A program made the position numbers and the translations under genes. 24,956 nt of DNA from Acidobacteriota bacterium (lineage in GTDB: Bacteria; Acidobacteriota; Vicinamibacteria; Vicinamibacterales; 2-12-FULL-66-21). The notes under the pieces were generated by a model that saw nothing but the letters and a program-made list of their open reading frames with translations, made no database searches and was not told the origin of the DNA. This document shows, piece by piece, positions 2,768-10,757 of this stretch. Location: NCBI GenBank assembly GCA_031431095.1, contig JANPCT010000305.1:1-24956 (forward strand), read 5' to 3'. Position 1 is the first letter of the stretch, and each line of letters starts with the position of its first letter.

Positions 2768-2954
2768 TACGGATTAGCTGTTCTTCTGGTAGCGTTGCGG
2801 ACAACGATCGGCTGCAAGGGTCGCCTCGATCGGTTGAAGGGTCGCAAACGGCCGGTTGGTTATATCAGCTTTCCAGGCGCGGCCCACCAGGCCCGTCTTC
2901 AACGTCCCCACTGGCGTTCGCCAGAGTCGTCGACGGACTGCAGATGAGGAGATC

Positions 2955-4031
2955 ATGAAAGCGATCGTCGTGAAGCCGGGCGAGAGAGACACGATCCACA
3001 TGCGCGACATGCCGGATCCCGGAATGGCGCCGGACCAGGTGGCGGTGAAGGTGCTCCGCGTCGGGCTGTGCGGGACCGATGCCGAGATCAACCACGGCGT
3101 CTACGGCCAGCCGCCCGACGGCGACGAGTTTCTCATTCTCGGCCATGAGAACCTCGGCATCGTCGAGGACGTCGGCAAGAAGGTCAGCGGCTGGAAGGCC
3201 GGCGATCTCGTCGTCGCGACCGTGCGGCGGCCGTGCGGTAGCTGTCCGCAATGCCAGGCCGGCGAGAACGACATGTGCAGCAGCGGCCAGTACTCCGAGC
3301 GGGGCATTCTGCGCCGCCACGGATTCATGGCGCAGTATTACGTCGAGCAGCCGCTCTTCCTGCACAAGATTCCCAGAGGCATCCGCGAGTTCGCCGTGCT
3401 GCTCGAACCGATGTCGGTGGTGCAGAAGGCGATCGATCACAGCTATCTGCTGCAGCGGCGGCTCAAGACGTGGAAGCCCCGGTTCGCGATGGTGCTCGGG
3501 GCGGGGCCGATCGGGCTGCTCGCCGCGGCGGTGTTGCGCGCGCGGGGACTGCGCGTTGCCGTCGTCGGCCGCGAACGTTCGACCGACGTCCGTGTCGCGG
3601 TCGTCAACCAACTCGGCGCCGAGTACGTCTGCGTCGCCGACAAGGCGCTCGTTGACGTCCCCGCGGAAACCGGCTACCCCGACCTCGTCATCGAAGCCAC
3701 CGGCGCGGCGAAGGTGGTTTTCGACGCGATGGAGATTCTCGGCAGGAACGCCGTCCTCTGCCTCTTGTCGGTCACGCCCGGCGACACCGTCAACGCGGAG
3801 CCGATCGATCGCATCAACCAGAAGATCGTGCTCGGTAACCAGGTGGTGTTCGGCAGCGTCAATGCCAGCCCCCGGCATTTCAAGCAGGGAGTGAAGGACT
3901 TCGTCTTCATCGAGAAGACGTGGCCCGGCGCCATGAACAAGCTGCTCACCGACAAGATCCCGTGGGCCGACCATAAGAAATGGTTCGGCGATCGAACTGC
4001 AGGCATCAAGTCGACGCTCGAAATCGCGTAG
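2955..4031 (+). CDS. Zn-dependent MDR-family dehydrogenase, glucose 1-dehydrogenase-like
   Basis: ATG at 2955 with SD GAGGAG at 2946-2951. Catalytic Zn motifs CGTD and GHE, structural Zn cluster RRPCGSCPQC...DMC, Rossmann GAGPIG, and VFGSVNA typical of the archaeal-type glucose dehydrogenase subfamily. Confidence 0.85.
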   Translation: MKAIVVKPGERDTIHMRDMPDPGMAPDQVAVKVLRVGLCGTDAEINHGVYGQPPDGDEFLILGHENLGIVEDVGKKVSGWKAGDLVVATVRRPCGSCPQCQAGENDMCSSGQYSERGILRRHGFMAQYYVEQPLFLHKIPRGIREFAVLLEPMSVVQKAIDHSYLLQRRLKTWKPRFAMVLGAGPIGLLAAAVLRARGLRVAVVGRERSTDVRVAVVNQLGAEYVCVADKALVDVPAETGYPDLVIEATGAAKVVFDAMEILGRNAVLCLLSVTPGDTVNAEPIDRINQKIVLGNQVVFGSVNASPRHFKQGVKDFVFIEKTWPGAMNKLLTDKIPWADHKKWFGDRTAGIKSTLEIA

Positions 4032-4341: not shown

Positions 4342-6117
4342 ATGAAGTCTTCGCTCATCGCGCTGCCTGCTGCTCTCGCTGTTTGTCTGGCCTCATGGGT
4401 TGCCACGCCCGCCGGCCAGCCACAGTCGCCAACACTGTCCGACGATCTGGCTCACCACGCGCCGGGGGTGCATACGCACCGCGTCATCGTGCAGTCGTCT
4501 GACGCCGGCCTCCTCGGCGCGGTTCGCCGGGGGGTGCACGGTCTGCTCCGCCGCGAGTTGAACGGGGCGATGGCGATCGAGGTGACGGACGCGCAACTCG
4601 ATGCGCTGCGGCGCAACCCGCTCCTCGCCCACATCTCGGGTGACCTTCCGGTCGTCGGTGACATGGCCCTCACCAACAAGGTGACGGGCGCGACCGCGGT
4701 GTGGCAAGGAACTCCCGGCGGTCTGCTCGGGCTCGGCGGCACACCAGGCTACACCGGCGCCGGCGTCACCGTCGCGGTGCTCGACTCCGGCATCGCAGCG
4801 CACAGCGCGCTCGACTCGCGCGTCATCGCGCGCGTCAACCTGGTGTCGAGCGAGCCGGGCATGACGGGCGATCCCTTTGGACACGGCACACACCTCGCCG
4901 GCATCATCGGTGGCAATCGCACGGCTGCTTCGTCCGTCACGCCTTCGTTCGGCGGCGGCAGCGCGCCATCGGTGCGGCTGGTGGACGTCCGCGTGCTCGG
5001 CGCGTCGGGTTCGGGTCGCACCAGCGACGTCATCGCCGGCATCGACTGGGTCATCGCCAATCGTCAGGCCTACGGCATGCGCGTCATCAACCTGTCGTTG
5101 GGACATCCTGTGGTCGAGCCGTCCGCAACCGATCCTCTCTGCCGCGCGGTGTCGCGCGCCGTTGCGGCGGGCATCACCGTGGTAGTGTCCGCGGGCAATT
5201 ACGGCCTGACCTCGTCCGGCCAGCCCGTGCTCGGCGGCATCACCTCTCCCGGAAATTCACCTGATGCACTGACGGTCGGCGCGATCGACACGAAGGGCAC
5301 GCTGGATACCGGGGACGATGTGGTGGCGCCGTTCAGCTCGCGTGGACCGGCTCGATACGAGATCGTGGTGAAGCCGGACGTCGTGGCTCCGGGAACGCGC
5401 GTCGTCTCTCTCGAGGCGCAGCGCTCGATCATCAGCGATTCCTATCCGCAGTGGCACATCGCGGGAAGTGGAAAGAACTCGTACCTGCGCCTGAGCGGCT
5501 CGAGCATGTCGACCGCCGTCGTCAGCGGCGGCATTGCGCTGCTTCTGAACGGCCAGCCGCAACTGACGCCGGCGCAGGTGAAGATGGCGCTGCAGATGGG
5601 CGCCCGCTTCATGCCGGACGCCGGGCTCGTCGGTGGGGGCACCGGCGCGGTGGACTTCTCGCGGGCGCAGAAGATTGCGGAGGCCGGTCTGCTCGGCTCC
5701 GGCCTGACCAGTGTCAGCACCTTGCTTGGCGGGGCCTCCGGAGCGGCGTTCCGGGACGCCGGCACGCTGATCGATCGCGTCTACGATCGCAGCGGCATCC
5801 GGCTGCTGGGGATCCTCGATCTCTCCCTGGTGTTCCGTAACGCCGATAGCGCGGAGCCCGGCGTGCTCCATCTGCTCGGCACGTCGAACCCGCTCGGATA
5901 TGCGGCGCCGAATTACGTCGTCTGGGGAAACGTCGCGGGCTGGTCCAGCAGCTACTACGTTGTCTGGGGTAACTCGATCCAGGCGCCGTCCGGACAGTAC
6001 GTGGTCTGGGGCAACAACAACGTTTCGGATCCCAACTACGTGGTCTGGGGCAACGCCGATACGGCTGACGGCAGCTACGTGGTGTGGGGCAACAGCCTCC
6101 CCGGCGGCGGCCACTGA
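4342..6117 (+). CDS. Secreted S8 (subtilase) serine peptidase with five C-terminal YVVWGN repeats
   Basis: Signal peptide MKSSLIALPAALAVCLASWVATPAG and a propeptide. Triad VAVLDSG / GHGTHLAG / SGSSMS, oxyanion-hole VSAGN. The C-terminal repeats are encoded at 5914-6093. Confidence 0.9.
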   Translation: MKSSLIALPAALAVCLASWVATPAGQPQSPTLSDDLAHHAPGVHTHRVIVQSSDAGLLGAVRRGVHGLLRRELNGAMAIEVTDAQLDALRRNPLLAHISGDLPVVGDMALTNKVTGATAVWQGTPGGLLGLGGTPGYTGAGVTVAVLDSGIAAHSALDSRVIARVNLVSSEPGMTGDPFGHGTHLAGIIGGNRTAASSVTPSFGGGSAPSVRLVDVRVLGASGSGRTSDVIAGIDWVIANRQAYGMRVINLSLGHPVVEPSATDPLCRAVSRAVAAGITVVVSAGNYGLTSSGQPVLGGITSPGNSPDALTVGAIDTKGTLDTGDDVVAPFSSRGPARYEIVVKPDVVAPGTRVVSLEAQRSIISDSYPQWHIAGSGKNSYLRLSGSSMSTAVVSGGIALLLNGQPQLTPAQVKMALQMGARFMPDAGLVGGGTGAVDFSRAQKIAEAGLLGSGLTSVSTLLGGASGAAFRDAGTLIDRVYDRSGIRLLGILDLSLVFRNADSAEPGVLHLLGTSNPLGYAAPNYVVWGNVAGWSSSYYVVWGNSIQAPSGQYVVWGNNNVSDPNYVVWGNADTADGSYVVWGNSLPGGGH

Positions 6118-6128
6118 ACGAAGGGACC

Positions 6129-8081
6129 GTGAGCGAGCGCCCGAACACATCGCCAGGCCTGCCGTTCGCGGCAAGGCTCCTGGTCACGACGGTCTGCGTG
6201 TGCGGTGGCGCTGCCGCCGCGCAGAGCGTCGCCGTCCTGTTGCGCGGGACGGTGGCGCCGGAATGGGTGCTGTTTGCGGTGCTGACGGTGCTGAGCGGAA
6301 TGCTCAGCATCAAGATCCCCTCGATCCAATCGCGATTCTCCCTTGCCGAAGTATTCGGGCTGGCGTCCGTCCTCCTCTTCGGACCGGCGGTCGGCGCCGT
6401 CACGCTGGCGCTCGACGGCCTGCGCATCTCCATTTCATGGAAGATGACGAGGCAGCAGACCGCGTTCAACATTACCAACCTGGCGCTGTCGATCTGGTTG
6501 TCAGGACAGTTGTTCTTCCTCGTCAGCGGAACCGGGCCTCTCTATCGCCACGACCCGCCGGGTGCGAGCATCGTGTTGTCGCTCGCGGTGCTGGCCACCG
6601 CGTACTTCGGCGTGAACAGCGGTCTGACGGCCGCGGTGATCGCGCTGTCGGGGCGCAAATCGCCGCGCGCCGTGTGGCTCGAGCACTACTGGCCCTTGTT
6701 TCCAAGTTATCTCGCCGGAGCGTCGGTGGCACTCCTCCTGGTGCTCGCGTTCAGAGAGGTCCGCTTCACTGCCATCGCGCTGATTCTTCCGCTGATCCTG
6801 ATCTGCTACCTGACGCTGCGCTCGTCGTTCGGGCGGTTGGAAGATTCGAAGACGCACGTCGATCAGCTCAATCGGCTGCTGCTGTCAACCGTGGAGACGC
6901 TGGCCACGGCGATCGACGCCAAGGACGAAGTCACGCACGATCATGTGCGCCGCGTGCAGCAGGGCACGCTCGGCCTCGCGCGCGAGCTTGGCGTCAGCGA
7001 TCCCGATACGCTGAAGGGGCTCGAAGCCGCGGCGTTGCTGCACGACACCGGGAAGATCGCCGTACCGGAACACATCCTCAACAAGCCCGGACGTCTCACG
7101 CCGGCGGAATTCGAGACGATGAAGCGCCACGCGCCGGCCGGGGCCGATATCCTCTCGTCAATCGAGTTTCCCTATCCGGTTGTGCCGATCGTGCGCCATC
7201 ATCACGAGAACTGGGACGGCAGCGGCTATCCGGACGGACTGTCCGGCGTCGCGATTCCGCTCGGGGCGCGCATCCTGTCCGTGGTGGACTGCTACGACGC
7301 ACTCACGTCCGATCGCCCCTACCGCAAGCGCATGAGCGAGCCTGATGCGCTCAAGATCATCGTCGACCGCCGCGGCACGATGTACGATCCCATGGTCGTC
7401 GATGCGTTTCTGGGCTGCTACGGGCGCATCATGCCCGAGCCGGTGGCGACGCGCCATCCTGCGGCACAGGCGGTTGGCGCAGTCATGTCGCTCGATCGCG
7501 AAGAACACCGGGGACAGGCGATGCCGGCGCTCGACGGCAGCATGACCGACGGCTTGCTGGCAGTGACCAGTCTGTCGCGGGCGGTCTCCGGCGGCGCACG
7601 CATCGCCGATGTCGGCGCGCTGATGTGGATGGTCGTTCGGCAGGTGCTGCCGTGTGACGCCATGGCCATCTTCCTGCCCGACGAGCGGTTCGATCACGTG
7701 ACCGTCCGGTACGCGGCCGGCGCGCACGCAGTCGCCCTGCGCACGCTGACGCGCGCGTCGGGCACCGGCATCGCGGGTTGGGTCGCCGTCAACCGCCAGG
7801 CGGCGCTCAATGCGGATCCGGCACTCGACTTCGGCCTGACCTCGGCGGCGCCGCCGCTGCGGTCGTGTCTGGCCAGCCCTCTGATCGAAGGGGACTCGCT
7901 CGTGGCCGTGCTCGCCCTCTACCGTGACGGCCCGGGCGCCTTCTCCGAAGACGACGTCCGCCTCGTGGAGCTCCTCGCGCCGCGGCTCGCCTCGTCACTG
8001 GTTGACGCCGCCGGGGCCGAGCGGAGCGCAACCAGCACGCCAGCTTTGAAGCTGGTAAGAAGCCACTCGCAGGGTGCCTGA
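6129..8081 (+). CDS. Membrane-bound HD-GYP cyclic-dinucleotide phosphodiesterase with N-terminal multi-TM sensor and C-terminal GAF domain
   Basis: GTG at 6129 is 11 bp after the peptidase stop. There are roughly 6-7 hydrophobic segments. The HD-GYP motifs are intact: AIDAKD..T..H..RV, LLHDTGK, RHHHENWDGSGYPDGL, VVDCYDALTSDRPYR. The GAF signature is GIAGWVA...LNAD...PL...VLALY...F.EDD. Confidence 0.9.
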   Translation: MSERPNTSPGLPFAARLLVTTVCVCGGAAAAQSVAVLLRGTVAPEWVLFAVLTVLSGMLSIKIPSIQSRFSLAEVFGLASVLLFGPAVGAVTLALDGLRISISWKMTRQQTAFNITNLALSIWLSGQLFFLVSGTGPLYRHDPPGASIVLSLAVLATAYFGVNSGLTAAVIALSGRKSPRAVWLEHYWPLFPSYLAGASVALLLVLAFREVRFTAIALILPLILICYLTLRSSFGRLEDSKTHVDQLNRLLLSTVETLATAIDAKDEVTHDHVRRVQQGTLGLARELGVSDPDTLKGLEAAALLHDTGKIAVPEHILNKPGRLTPAEFETMKRHAPAGADILSSIEFPYPVVPIVRHHHENWDGSGYPDGLSGVAIPLGARILSVVDCYDALTSDRPYRKRMSEPDALKIIVDRRGTMYDPMVVDAFLGCYGRIMPEPVATRHPAAQAVGAVMSLDREEHRGQAMPALDGSMTDGLLAVTSLSRAVSGGARIADVGALMWMVVRQVLPCDAMAIFLPDERFDHVTVRYAAGAHAVALRTLTRASGTGIAGWVAVNRQAALNADPALDFGLTSAAPPLRSCLASPLIEGDSLVAVLALYRDGPGAFSEDDVRLVELLAPRLASSLVDAAGAERSATSTPALKLVRSHSQGA

Positions 8082-8174
8082 AAAATTGGCGCTCTCGGAC
8101 CTTCCGCCTGAAGGCGGAAAACTCAGGAACTCCAACTCAGGGCTCTGTAGTTTCCGCCTTTAGGCGGAATTCAC
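8067..8174. repeat. REP-like element copy 1: inverted pair of TTCCGCCT-NN-AGGCGGAA palindromes with left flank
   Basis: Palindromes at 8102-8119 and 8152-8169, the latter preceded by GTAG at 8147-8150. It is near-identical to the elements at 14346-14549 and 24858-24926. Confidence 0.85.
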
Positions 8175-8330
8175 CTCTCGTCCGGCCGCATCAAGGCAAC
8201 TGTCTCCGGTCCCCGCAAAGCGGGTCAAAATAGCGTTTCAAGTTCCAAAATAAGACAACTACAGCTAAGTTTAATGGCTGTAACGTTTAGGTCCATAAAA
8301 AGCTATCGTTTAGTGTTCATTTGTACCTTT

Positions 8331-8341
8331 ACGGAACACAG
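8331..8341 (+). promoter_or_regulatory. Candidate upstream activator site ACGGAACACAG, part of GTGTTC-N15-GAACAC dyad (8313-8339)
   Basis: Identical to 4186-4196, with the same 105-bp spacing to a sigma54 -24 element. A perfect 6-bp inverted partner GTGTTC lies at 8313-8318. Confidence 0.5.
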
Positions 8342-8435
8342 AGTCCGTCCGAGCTGACAAGCCTTGACCAACGCTTGTCGCTCATAAGTCCATATCAGAC
8401 AACATTTTGCAAACGCGTTTCATATATGGAACGGG

Positions 8436-8452
8436 CTGGCTCGTCAATTGCT
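8436..8452 (+). promoter_or_regulatory. Sigma54 (-24/-12) promoter upstream of first stand-alone GAF gene
   Basis: CTGGCTCGTCAATTGCT has GG at 8438-8439, a 10-nt spacer and GC at 8450-8451. It is close to the consensus YTGGCACG-N3-TTGCW. Confidence 0.7.
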
Positions 8453-8557
8453 CTGTTACAGGGAATGAACGAGTGCCCGAGCATTCCTGAGCCGGCCGCG
8501 TCGCGCTGTCACGAGGGGCCGACCACCTTCGAAACCGCAGCCCCCACGGAGGGGCGC

Positions 8558-9121
8558 ATGCCGGGCGCCGAACGGACCGGCGACGCGTTGCTGGCAATCG
8601 CCAGCCTGGCGCGCGCATTGGACGGTAATGCCAGGCTCGCCGACGTCGGGGCGCTGGTGTGGATGCTGTTGCGTCAACTCGTTCCGGCTGACGCCATCGC
8701 CCTCTTTCTCCCCGATGAGCACAACGATCACGTCGTCGTCCGTTACGCCGGCGGCCTGCATGCCGATGGATTGAGCGGTGTGGCGCGTCCGATCGCGATG
8801 GGAATTGCCGGCTGCGTGGCGGTGAACCGGCGGGCCGTTCTCAACGCCGACCCAAGCGTGGACCTTGGCTTGCGGGGTGCCGCGGCGCCCGCATTGCGTG
8901 CCTGCCTGGTGACGCCGCTCGTCGACAGCGATGCGCTCGTCGCGGTGCTGGCGCTGTACTCGAAAACGGTAAATGGATTCACGGACGATCATCTGCGGCT
9001 CCTCGAAGTGCTCGCCCCGCGGCTGGCGTCGGCTCTTGTCGATGCCGCCATCGCGGACGAAGACAGCCTGGCAGCGGTCGGCGACGTGCCGCGCGCGCTG
9101 AGACTCGTGCACACCAACTAG
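8558..9121 (+). CDS. Stand-alone GAF domain protein (paralogue of the HD-GYP C-terminal GAF)
   Basis: ATG 8558 has SD GGAGGGG at 8548-8554; ATG 8465 is an alternative start. It aligns without large gaps to the GAF of 6129-8081 (ADVGAL.W, D..A.FLPDE..DHV.VRYA.G, GIAG.VAVNR, VAVLALY, LAPRLAS.LVDAA). Confidence 0.85.
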   Translation: MPGAERTGDALLAIASLARALDGNARLADVGALVWMLLRQLVPADAIALFLPDEHNDHVVVRYAGGLHADGLSGVARPIAMGIAGCVAVNRRAVLNADPSVDLGLRGAAAPALRACLVTPLVDSDALVAVLALYSKTVNGFTDDHLRLLEVLAPRLASALVDAAIADEDSLAAVGDVPRALRLVHTN

Positions 9122-9137
9122 AGCGGCGCCTCAGCGG

Positions 9138-9212
9138 GGGCGGACACTGTCCTCCGATCGATGCCCACCAGGCGGTGGGCGACGAGTGCAATCGGAGCAC
9201 AGTGTCCCGCCC
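9138..9212. other. Long imperfect inverted repeat / hairpin between the two GAF genes
   Basis: Stacked stems GGGCG/CGCCC, GACACTGT/ACAGTGTC, CTCCGAT/ATCGGAG and GCCCACC/GGTGGGC, with loop AGGC. Confidence 0.6.
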
Positions 9213-9275
9213 TCGGGCCGGAGGACGGACCACGCGGCGATCGTAACTGTGGAACACGGAGACTGACCGGTGAAA

Positions 9276-9827
9276 ATGACGAATTCCGCGGCGCTGGACG
9301 ACGGCATCATGGCGATCGGCGGGTTGTCGCGCGCGCTGGGCGGCCAGGCGGTGCTGGCCGACGTCGGATCGCTGTTGTGGGTGCTGATCCGCCAGGTGGT
9401 GCGGTGCGACACGATGGCGATGTTCACGGCCGATGAGTCCCGCGATCAGGTTGTCATCCGCTACGCCGCCGGCGTGCATGCGAACGTGCTCGACGGCATC
9501 GCGCGTCCGCGCTCCACAGGCATCGCGGGCTGGGTCGCCAGCAACCGGCTGCCCGTCCTGAACGCGGAACCAATCATCGACCTCGGCTTCCGCGCCTCCG
9601 TCGCTCCGGCATTGCGGTCGTCGCTGGTGGTGCCGCTCGTCGAGGAGTGTGCGCTCGTCGCCATCCTCGCGCTCTACTCCACTGAACTGCTCGCCTTCAC
9701 GGACGATCACGTCGAGATGCTCGGTGTGCTCGGTCCGCGGCTGGCGCGAACACTCGGCGACGCGGTCGTCGATCGCCCGCACCGCATCGCGGAGACCCCC
9801 GTGCTGCGCCTGGTCGGGGGGAGTTAG
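9276..9827 (+). CDS. Second stand-alone GAF domain protein (same paralogous family)
   Basis: ATG 9276 (or GTG 9270) with GGAGA at 9258-9262. Same GAF signature: ADVGSLLW, RYAAG.HA, GIAGWVASNR, LVAILALY, FTDDH. Confidence 0.85.
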   Translation: MTNSAALDDGIMAIGGLSRALGGQAVLADVGSLLWVLIRQVVRCDTMAMFTADESRDQVVIRYAAGVHANVLDGIARPRSTGIAGWVASNRLPVLNAEPIIDLGFRASVAPALRSSLVVPLVEECALVAILALYSTELLAFTDDHVEMLGVLGPRLARTLGDAVVDRPHRIAETPVLRLVGGS

Positions 9828-9835
9828 GGAAGCCA

Positions 9836-9878
9836 GGTTTGTAGTTTGTGGTTGGGAGTTCGTAGTTTGTAGTTGTAG
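9836..9878. repeat. Degenerate ~7-bp short tandem repeat (TTGTAGT-like)
   Basis: ggtttgtagtttgtggttgggagttcgtagtttgtagttgtag immediately follows the GAF gene stop. Confidence 0.6.
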
Positions 9879-9941
9879 ACGACCGCTGAGTCTGTGCGAA
9901 CCCTCGTGCGGTAATATCCGCGTGCTGGCGATGAGACGCAC

Positions 9942-10757
9942 TTGCTGATTCGATTACGCGGCGTCAGGGGATCGGTGCCGTGGTCCGTGCCGGACGGAAT
10001 CATTCACGGCTGCAACACCCCCTGCATCGAGGTGTTCGACGAGCGCACGGGCGGCCTGCTCATTCTCGATGCCGGTTCCGGCATTGCCGGCGTCAACCCC
10101 GCGGAGCTGGCCGGGTCCCCGTCCGCGCGTGCTGTGTCACTCGTCCTCACCCACTACCACTGGGATCACCTGCTCGGCCTGCCGTTCTTCACGACGTTGT
10201 ACGAGCCCGGATGGGACCTGACCATCCACACCCCGCGGCTCGAGTCGCACGATCCCACGTGGCTGGCGACGATCTTCAAATCATCGTTCTTCCCGGTGCC
10301 GTACCAGCACCTGCCGAACCGCCCGACGGTGCGGATGGTCGAGGCGGGCCCGGTTAACGTCCCCGGCTTCGAGATGACCGCGCTCGGGCTCAATCATCCC
10401 GGCGGTGCGATGGCGTACCGGATCAAGGGCGTCACCGGTGATTTCGTCTACGCTACCGACCACGAGTTTGGCGATCCGGCTTATGACGAGCCGCTCGCCT
10501 ACTTCGTCCGCGGCGCCGCCGCCATCGTCCTGGATGCGCACTTCACTCCTGCCGAGCGGGTGCACCACCGCGGTTGGGGGCACAGCGACTGGCGGCAGTG
10601 CGCCGAGTTTGCGGCTGCCAACGCAATTGGCCGGCTCTACCTCTTCCATCACAAGCCGGGGCGATCCGACATCGCCCTCGACCACATTCGCGATGAGGCG
10701 CGGATGGTGTTCAACGCCACCGACACCGCGAAGGAAGAGGCAACGATCGTCATCTGA
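9942..10757 (+). CDS. Metallo-beta-lactamase-fold hydrolase (RNase Z/PhnP-like, putative phosphodiesterase)
   Basis: N-terminal GVRGSVP, NTPC and ILDAGSG, HxHxDH motif THYHWDH, NHPGG, YATDHE and WGHS. TTG start. Confidence 0.85.
   Translation: MLIRLRGVRGSVPWSVPDGIIHGCNTPCIEVFDERTGGLLILDAGSGIAGVNPAELAGSPSARAVSLVLTHYHWDHLLGLPFFTTLYEPGWDLTIHTPRLESHDPTWLATIFKSSFFPVPYQHLPNRPTVRMVEAGPVNVPGFEMTALGLNHPGGAMAYRIKGVTGDFVYATDHEFGDPAYDEPLAYFVRGAAAIVLDAHFTPAERVHHRGWGHSDWRQCAEFAAANAIGRLYLFHHKPGRSDIALDHIRDEARMVFNATDTAKEEATIVI

Follow-up and report, generated by a model that had tools for sequence, protein, structure and literature searches.

A tryptophan-containing repeat tail of an acidobacterial subtilase as a candidate recognition element for the membrane sensor of a neighbouring HD-GYP phosphodiesterase

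In the agr and comQXP pherotype loci, a divergent block comprising the signal and the sensor part of its receptor is embedded in near-identical flanks and exchanged by recombination. Multi-copy peptide precursors processed by proteases of the subtilisin family are known from yeast alpha-factor with Kex2 and from the ustiloxin precursor UstA. LapG is a periplasmic cysteine protease devoid of a repeat tail, and LapD combines a folded periplasmic domain with a degenerate GGDEF-EAL part. For HD-GYP phosphodiesterases and for the MASE9 domain, we know of almost no input signals. Here, we analyze a stretch of 24,956 nucleotides (contig JANPCT010000305.1 of assembly GCA_031431095.1, in the following termed the window) from an Acidobacteriota bacterium of the order Vicinamibacterales, in which a subtilase gene ending in five YVVWGN repeat units immediately precedes the gene for a membrane-bound HD-GYP/GAF protein. 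Comparison with related loci shows that the repeat array and the membrane domain of the neighbouring sensor form one deeply divergent allelic block and are exchanged as a unit. We give roughly even chances to the proposal that the repeat tail serves as the cognate recognition element of this MASE9-like sensor.

Joint exchange of the repeat array and the sensor membrane domain

The five YVVWGN units follow each other with periods of 14, 14, 13 and 13 amino acids within the last 68 residues of the subtilase and are separated by the spacers VAGWSSSY, SIQAPSGQ, NNVSDPN and ADTADGS. Their codons differ, with gtc, gtt, gtg, gtg and gtg for the valine in position 2 and gga, ggt, ggc, ggc and ggc for the glycine. 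Coordinates, periods, spacers and codon variation all agree with an earlier reading of the DNA by a model (the original prediction). Tandem Repeats Finder detects only a weak 18-nt repeat in the array (58% matches, score 46), which identifies it as a repeat of the protein and not of the DNA. No further copy of YVVWGN is present in any frame of the window, and the array is the single occurrence in the 4.57-Mb assembly, where no paralogue of the repeat-tailed subtilase is found. The preceding segment of about 90 amino acids with its (G/R/H)LLG motifs, which had been taken for a linker, does exist but is not a plain linker, as it ends in two degenerate units, IRLLGI (5797-5814) and LHLLGT (5866-5883). 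At these very positions, a related protein (P0164) carries RILWGD and RIIWGD.

A comparison of close operons by sliding-window nucleotide identity gave the strongest result of the analysis: two independent pairs differing in unit type exhibited the same mosaic structure. Loci L076 (YVVWGS) and L020 (YIVWGS) are 97-100% identical in the subtilase body and again from ~780 nt after its stop codon. In between, over a stretch that opens with the first canonical unit (~180 nt ahead of the stop) and closes where the membrane domain ends, identity is only 49-73%. The same divergent block, here spanning ~-360 to ~+1000 as counted from the stop codon, separates L059 (YIVWGN) from L051 (YLVWGN). Nucleotide identities for the S8 body, the membrane region and the C-terminal part of the HD-GYP protein amount to 0.981, 0.664 and 0.973 in the first pair and to 0.963, 0.684 and 0.954 in the second. 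The boundaries of the block coincide with the beginning of the array on one side and the end of the membrane domain on the other. Three close pairs of the same type lack a divergent block and are 0.94-0.997 identical in the membrane region, where pairs of different unit type never exceed 0.76. Since the divergent block sits between near-identical flanks, array and sensor membrane domain are exchanged jointly, and the arrangement of a divergent block over candidate signal and sensor domain with conserved flanks, seen in both pairs, is that of a pherotype cassette. In the pairs, the cassette begins 180-360 nt ahead of the subtilase stop and extends 770-1000 nt beyond it; its approximate equivalent in the window is given in Table 1.

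The two genes are also firmly linked in position. An orthologue of the HD-GYP protein follows the subtilase in 62 of the 64 related loci that offer at least 600 nt downstream of the subtilase, the gap being 3-19 nt or replaced by an overlap. In the window, the short purine-rich spacer makes an operon or translational coupling of the two genes likely. The linkage extends to distant relatives: the sensor downstream of the subtilase with 13 AIIWGH units in L081 is 40% identical to that of the window over 610 aa, L082 features two NIVWG-type subtilases followed by a MASE9-HD_5-GAF-GGDEF protein (32% identity over 647 aa) with a precomputed MASE9 hit, and in L080 (QILWGT) a partial downstream open reading frame matches the sensor membrane region. 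The window protein itself matches HD_5 (E 2e-41) and GAF (1e-12) in Pfam but stays below the cut-off for MASE9 (PF20972; 11.3 bits against 24.3, E 0.33), and we term its membrane domain MASE9-like because of its full-length homology (32% identity) to the MASE9-annotated orthologue. In three database proteins (P0150, P0140 and P0127), a subtilase tail runs via frameshifted stretches into the N-terminus of an HD-GYP protein. P0150 and P0140 were considered as true fusions and dismissed, as the frameshifts point to assembly or gene-calling artefacts; still, all three joins independently document the adjacency of subtilase and HD-GYP gene.

In a set of 53 operons, unit type tends to covary with residues of the membrane domain. 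Residue T167 changes on 6 of the 12 branches on which the unit type changes, as opposed to 2 of 92 other branches (p 1.5e-5). The six best columns of the HD-GYP protein all fall into its membrane domain (residues 55-167), and the best column of the S8 body reaches p 0.015. T167 is present in each of the 26 loci with a V-type tail, and among the non-redundant V-type operons it is joined by A172 in all except L063, which has G172. L-type tails go along with I, L or V at position 167 or with G or S at position 172, and P0150 (YLVWGT) features Ile in place of T167. Q67 is found exclusively with V-type tails and E67 exclusively with I- or L-type tails. The tree of the membrane region requires 7 changes of unit type compared with 15-18 for other regions, and for pairs of different type the distance lies 11% above expectation in the membrane domain (permutation P <0.0005) and 5% above it in the tail spacers, with no excess in the S8 body or the HD and GAF parts; these distance, tree and column tests overlap with the recombination signal and are not independent of it. 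A coevolution of units and subtilase body, as would be expected for a cleavage site and its binding pocket, was also looked for and discarded, because no column of the body follows the unit type (best p 0.002 among 259 columns and 0.015 in the branch test).

Conservation of the operon, exchange of both parts as one cassette and covariation of membrane residues support as a lead what the original prediction had suggested, i.e., a functional tie between the tail and the membrane domain of the neighbouring HD-GYP protein. In the mechanism we propose, the subtilase would be exported and its tail, in which five canonical and two degenerate units each form a short beta-strand, would be recognized by the MASE9-like membrane domain of the HD-GYP/GAF phosphodiesterase for cyclic diguanylate (c-di-GMP) encoded 11 nt downstream. 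Selection would hold the units of one protein identical because all of them would have to fit the same partner, and as tail and sensor would be co-adapted, they would diversify together and matched allelic types would be moved by recombination as one cassette. We infer a physical contact between tail and sensor as well as an effect on c-di-GMP hydrolysis.

Several observations weigh against this proposal. Clean mosaic pairs number only two, and the tail, lying between a conserved body and a variable membrane domain, could simply have been carried along. The covariation is modest: an equally good best p is reached by 3% of 98 arbitrary subtilase columns used as an empirical null, and phylogenetically independent pairs, too few in number, yield 4 concordant cases, 1 unchanged and 0 opposite (p 0.125). 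The L-type operons L027, L086 and L087 retain T167, and the distant locus L085 is devoid of an HD-GYP gene in the 5 kb downstream of the subtilase. Furthermore, T167 and A172 appear to lie near the cytoplasmic end of a helix, a placement made by the positive-inside rule without a topology tool, and this would be awkward for a periplasmic ligand. Galperin and Chou (bioRxiv 10.1101/2021.11.05.467447) have argued that ligand binding by MASE9 takes place within the membrane; the same paper, in which the domain is defined, names neither a ligand nor a protease.

Repeat units within and beyond the window

Identity of the units is kept at the level of the peptide. Among 63 non-identical genes, identity at unit position 2 is 0.957 within a gene but only 0.364 between orthologous units, while third-base identity within genes for codons 2, 3 and 5 (0.42, 0.52 and 0.63) equals that of a shuffled null (0.47, 0.53 and 0.64). 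In the same vein, the 13 AIIWGH units of the distant gene in L081 differ at synonymous sites. In a deep family with four units, identities for positions 1, 2, 3 and 6 are 1.0, 0.98, 0.99 and 0.95 within proteins compared with 0.50, 0.36, 0.56 and 0.44 between proteins, position 1 being occupied by Y, Q, H, S, V, F, R or M. Gene conversion and slippage were considered as sources of the identical units and abandoned, as there is no third-base excess within genes and the DNA repeat is weak. DNA-level homogenization is thus rejected and selection acts on the peptide, just as the codon variation had originally been interpreted.

In the tree of the catalytic domain, every unit requires at least 27 changes at position 2, and these always occur together. 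Mixed unit types within one protein are rare (4 of 86), and coupling between units is confined to equivalent positions. We withdraw the interpretation of these en-bloc changes as a series of parallel mutations, because close pairs of different type display recombination blocks. Such pairs also diverge strongly in their spacers (0.30 versus 0.09), and recombination explains at least part of the en-bloc changes. In a second respect, besides the supposed linker, the original prediction has to be corrected: the spacers are not variable polar linkers but are conserved position by position among orthologues, with VAGWSxSY, TIQSPSGQ and NExSDxN as spacers 1, 2 and 3 and nine positions of the tail alignment conserved to at least 90% (A10, W12, S13, S15, Y16, I24, P27, G29 and Q30).

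A sequence search with the tail retrieved 325 proteins. All matches listed carry Peptidase_S8; the relatives have four or five units and, where source names are given, stem from Vicinamibacterales or Acidobacteriota. A profile of the tail found 108 proteins among 1.84 billion representative proteins. The repeat class can be described as x-hydrophobic-hydrophobic-W-G-x, present in 3-17 copies with a period of 10-14, occasionally 6, residues, and all full-length carriers checked are Peptidase_S8 subtilases with the repeats at the C-terminus. Unit types comprise YVVWGN, YLVWGN, YIVWGN, HLVWGD, QIIWGE, AIIWGH and others, as exemplified by proteins with 13 AIIWGH, 12-16 NIVWGN/T, 8 QIIWGD, 8 FVVWGD, 9 TIIWGN or 4 HLVWGD units. 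The first unit of the array is often divergent in relatives (RLVWGQ, QLVWGE). The exact Y-type profile is narrow, with hits in 5 of 401 Acidobacteriota genomes, all from the order of the window. Scans of the tail against Pfam and NCBIfam yielded no model for the repeat, and in the literature searched we found no description of these motifs or of a pairing of HD-GYP proteins with subtilisin. A separate mini-gene carrying or ending in the motif is present neither in the window nor in the 24 related loci searched.

Some relatives feature peculiar unit arrangements. In P0105 and in loci L066 and L068, unit position 6 alternates between N, S, N and S along the array, an exception to homogeneity that might reflect a structural period of two units. 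Tails of the NIVWGT type (P0176, P0182, P0195 and P0199) consist of many 14-residue units with two cysteines spaced five apart (C-G-G-x-D-C), which suggests one disulfide per unit, resembling the disulfide-braced solenoids of insect antifreeze proteins. In P0220 (805 aa), an Ice_binding domain (DUF3494, PF11999, E 3e-63) resides between the catalytic domain and a QIIWGT tail. Locus L082 encodes two paralogous subtilases (5001-7205 and 7946-10015), both with 16 NIVWG units, and only one MASE9-HD-GYP-GAF-GGDEF gene, which lies downstream of the two. Directly beside NIVWG-type subtilases, a gene for a GNAT acetyltransferase (Acetyltransf_3) is found on three unrelated metagenome contigs (L082, 7217-7873; L084, 151-816; L085, 3003-3665), and it is possible that this enzyme is a further member of the module in the NIVWG branch.

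Subtilase domains, neighbouring genes and the fold of the tail

The subtilase matches Peptidase_S8 (PF00082) with E 2.4e-48 at residues 167-449 of the 619-aa frame. With 165 bits against a cut-off of 21.8, a complete Asp-His-Ser triad and the oxyanion Asn, it is a member of this family, and its active-site residues (DSG, HGTH, SAGN and GSSMS) are intact and unchanged in 86 homologues. A 100% identical database protein of 591 aa (P0002) begins with MKSSLIAL and thus starts at ATG 4342. The signal-peptide-like N-terminus (Table 1), for which AlphaFold models a helix at residues 7-20, points at export of the protein. Two anchoring modes were considered from a reading of the sequence and dropped: a lipoprotein does not fit, as Val precedes the N-terminal Cys and no lipobox is formed, and a C-terminal sorting signal does not fit, as a hydrophobic anchor is lacking. 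The solved structures nearest to the catalytic domain are 9ues and 3afg (E about 1e-39), while a sequence search of the PDB found none that covers the tail. The post-catalytic segment contains many invariant residues among homologues and is modelled at moderate confidence (pLDDT 66-83).

Table 1. Positions of the subtilase, its repeat tail and the adjoining HD-GYP gene in the window
Feature	Position	Strand	Basis or remark
Subtilase gene	4342..6117	+	591 aa from ATG 4342; 619 aa from upstream in-frame ATG 4258; list of open reading frames
N-terminal hydrophobic, signal-peptide-like stretch MKSSLIALPAALAVCLASWVATPAGQ	4342..4419	+	Read from sequence
Peptidase_S8 catalytic domain	4756..5604	+	Pfam
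Catalytic Asp, VLDSGI	4783-4785	+	Motif in sequence
Catalytic His, GHGTH	4882-4884	+	Motif in sequence
Oxyanion Asn, SAGN	5197-5199	+	Motif in sequence
Catalytic Ser, GSSMS	5503-5505	+	Motif in sequence
Conserved post-catalytic segment with two degenerate units at its end	5605..5907	+	Alignment, AlphaFold
Approximate equivalent of the exchanged cassette	5760..7100	+	Mapped by distance from the stop codon; bounds approximate
Canonical repeat array (five YVVWGN units, four spacers, end SLPGGGH)	5908..6114	+	Sequence
YVVWGN units	5914-5931, 5956-5973, 5998-6015, 6037-6054, 6076-6093	+	Frame of open reading frame 4258/4342..6117
Intergenic spacer (11 nt), purine-rich GAAGGGA before GTG start	6118..6128	+	Sequence
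Membrane HD-GYP/GAF protein	6129..8081	+	HDTGK at aa 305, HHHENWDGSGYP at aa 357, GAF C-terminal
Multi-pass membrane (MASE9-like) domain of the HD-GYP protein	6129..6878	+	
Residues tracking unit type: Q67, T167, A172	6327-6329, 6627-6629, 6642-6644	+	

Upstream of the subtilase, a gene for a zinc-type alcohol/glucose dehydrogenase (ADH_N, Glu_dehyd_C) is located at 2856-4031 on the same strand, and this order is shared by the window, L001, L002, L086 and L087, i.e., synteny reaches upstream of the module. Downstream of the HD-GYP gene, a free-standing GAF protein is encoded at 8321-9121 (+). It is very similar to the HD-GYP protein's own GAF domain, the likeness residing in shared ADVGAL.W...RQ..P.DA.A.FLPDE stretches. 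Similar genes occur in L001 and L002, and a second HD-GYP/GAF paralogue is present in L002 and L086. Neither modification enzymes nor an exporter are encoded in the operon in the window and the related loci inspected.

The original prediction would have been undermined by a tail that folds as a known structural domain; neither a confident Pfam match nor a confident fold was obtained. When the full protein is modelled by AlphaFold2 with an alignment of 86 sequences, residues 522-591 remain below pLDDT 50, with strands on the units, and the tail alone, modelled with a more diverse alignment, reaches a mean pLDDT of 45.9. A complex prediction with three tail copies scores 0.00, the fold of the tail itself being uncertain, and carries no weight for or against oligomerization. 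The window tail stays below the threshold for LbR_Ice_bind, the beta-roll of grass antifreeze proteins (PF21300; 14 bits against a cut-off of 30, E 0.055). P0208 scores 24 bits. In a scan of 33 tails, four match this family, and only the 13-unit tail of P0144, taken alone, exceeds the cut-off with 31.8 bits, but such Pfam leads are weak because the same biased repeat sequences also yield a spurious CHZ match. As to the heads of YadA-like trimeric adhesins (Hep_Hag), a profile of window-type tails gave only chance matches in the PDB. Matches to 7o23, a trimeric-adhesin head (E 7e-10), and to YadA 1p9h (0.01) were obtained only with the P0144 tail and under a strong composition bias, and Hexapep is present in 15-28% of the members of the nearest Atlas clusters. 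Taken together, these three weak matches provide a lead, and only that, to a solenoid-type or beta-roll fold, which would also agree with docking of the tail on a partner.

Alternative explanations and comparison with known systems

A structural role of the tail is the main alternative to its recognition by the sensor. The tail would then be a beta-roll or beta-solenoid appendage with ~13-14 residues per turn that stabilizes the protease, binds substrate or a surface or aids secretion; its units would be alike because they form stacked ladders, and the transfer together with the membrane domain would be hitch-hiking due to adjacency. The weak leads to LbR_Ice_bind, 7o23/YadA 1p9h and Hexapep agree with such a fold, as do the position-by-position conservation of the spacers, the often divergent, cap-like first unit, the strict same-position coupling between units and the paired cysteines in the spacers of relatives, which are reminiscent of disulfide-braced solenoid rungs. 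The matches are, however, weak and accompanied by the spurious CHZ match from the same bias. Known solenoids tolerate mixtures of V, I and L in their ladders, while such mixtures are rare here. Moreover, a purely structural tail leaves unexplained why the operon is conserved down to 32-40% sensor identity, why the block edges match array plus membrane domain and why membrane-domain residues covary with unit type, and we rate it as fairly unlikely. Self-association, in which the hexapeptides would form an in-register cross-beta (amyloid-like) or oligomeric stack and require identity for templating, is very improbable in our view. It would agree with the same-position coupling and with the abundance of V, I, Y, W and N in the hexapeptides, and matched motif pairs have a precedent in amyloid signalling (bioRxiv 10.1101/2020.01.06.895854). 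Unlike in those pairs, the motif was not found in neighbouring proteins, the spacers are conserved and polar, and no link to the covariation in the sensor is provided.

Alternatively, in a more specific form of the original prediction, the subtilase may cut the array, in cis or between molecules, for example after Trp, and release peptides with the same hydrophobic end as a diffusible signal for the MASE9 sensor, so that the allelic types would be pherotypes. Tandem identical or near-identical core peptides, as expected for a multi-copy precursor, are indeed present. They are held by selection on the peptide, occur in 3-17 copies and are fused to a protease, and the cassette of signal and sensor domain resembles agr and comQXP. 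Subtilisin prefers hydrophobic residues in P1 and P4, and Y-V-V-W followed by Gly would fit this preference; the lack of a confident AlphaFold fold is compatible with a flexible substrate. On the other hand, the spacers are as conserved as the cores instead of being dispensable, in relatives the distance between units can be as short as 10 or even 6 residues, the unit type is not mirrored in any column of the subtilase body, and the operon offers neither modification enzymes or an exporter nor, in the window and the 24 related loci, a mini-gene with the motif. A released precursor appears unlikely to us. The proposal of recognition by the sensor can itself be read in two ways: attached to the protease, an in-register, beta-roll-like stack would dock the subtilase on the sensor, or the protease would cut the array into peptides. 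Here, we lean modestly towards the attached mode, given that spacers are conserved, that periods can be short in relatives and that no protease residue covaries; high and variable copy number, fusion to a protease and the absence of a confident fold leave room for release.

With a genetically matched protease tail, a concrete and cheaply testable hypothesis for the input of an HD-GYP/MASE9 protein is at hand. The repeat itself is a case in which the DNA drifts but selection on the peptide preserves identical units, and in these uncultured soil bacteria the tail of one protein and the membrane domain of its neighbour are exchanged as one specificity cassette. If the pairing holds, pherotype-like diversification would extend from quorum sensing in Gram-positives to c-di-GMP signalling in Acidobacteriota. 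A more far-reaching possibility, which we consider doubtful, is that soil Acidobacteriota and other bacteria with Trp-repeat subtilases operate a new kind of peptide signalling, in which a multi-copy signal is released or presented by the subtilase and read by MASE9, which sets c-di-GMP, with recombining pherotypes. Were this to be true, the tail would provide the first MASE9 ligand and a peptide input for HD-GYP enzymes.

The closest parallels are Staphylococcus agrBDCA and Bacillus comQXP, with which the acidobacterial locus shares a divergent allelic block over the candidate signal and the membrane sensor domain between near-identical flanks. Here, the repeated C-terminal tail of a subtilase takes the place of a small precursor as candidate signal, an HD-GYP c-di-GMP phosphodiesterase takes that of a histidine kinase as receptor, and both peptide release and cross-type specificity are putative. 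Tandem identical cores, a protease of the subtilisin family and variable copy number are features in common with alpha-factor/Kex2 and UstA, from which our case differs in that protease and repeats make up one polypeptide, the spacers are conserved and free of dibasic sites and the product is putative. A period of ~14 residues and a hydrophobic strand followed by Gly, along with sub-threshold to borderline profile matches, recall left-handed beta-rolls (LbR_Ice_bind PF21300, YadA-like heads), but the Trp in each unit, the strict identity of the units and the attachment to a protease set the tail apart, and the window tail is below threshold. As in the MASE9 HD-GYP proteins described before (bioRxiv 10.1101/2021.11.05.467447), the neighbouring protein combines a multi-pass membrane domain with HD-GYP and GAF; neither a ligand nor a link to a protease is reported there, and the window protein reaches only E 0.33 against the MASE9 model. 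Finally, although there is no homology and a subtilase with a repeat tail is involved, the locus resembles LapG/LapD in pairing a (here predicted) periplasmic protease with an inner-membrane c-di-GMP protein that could hold or release it.

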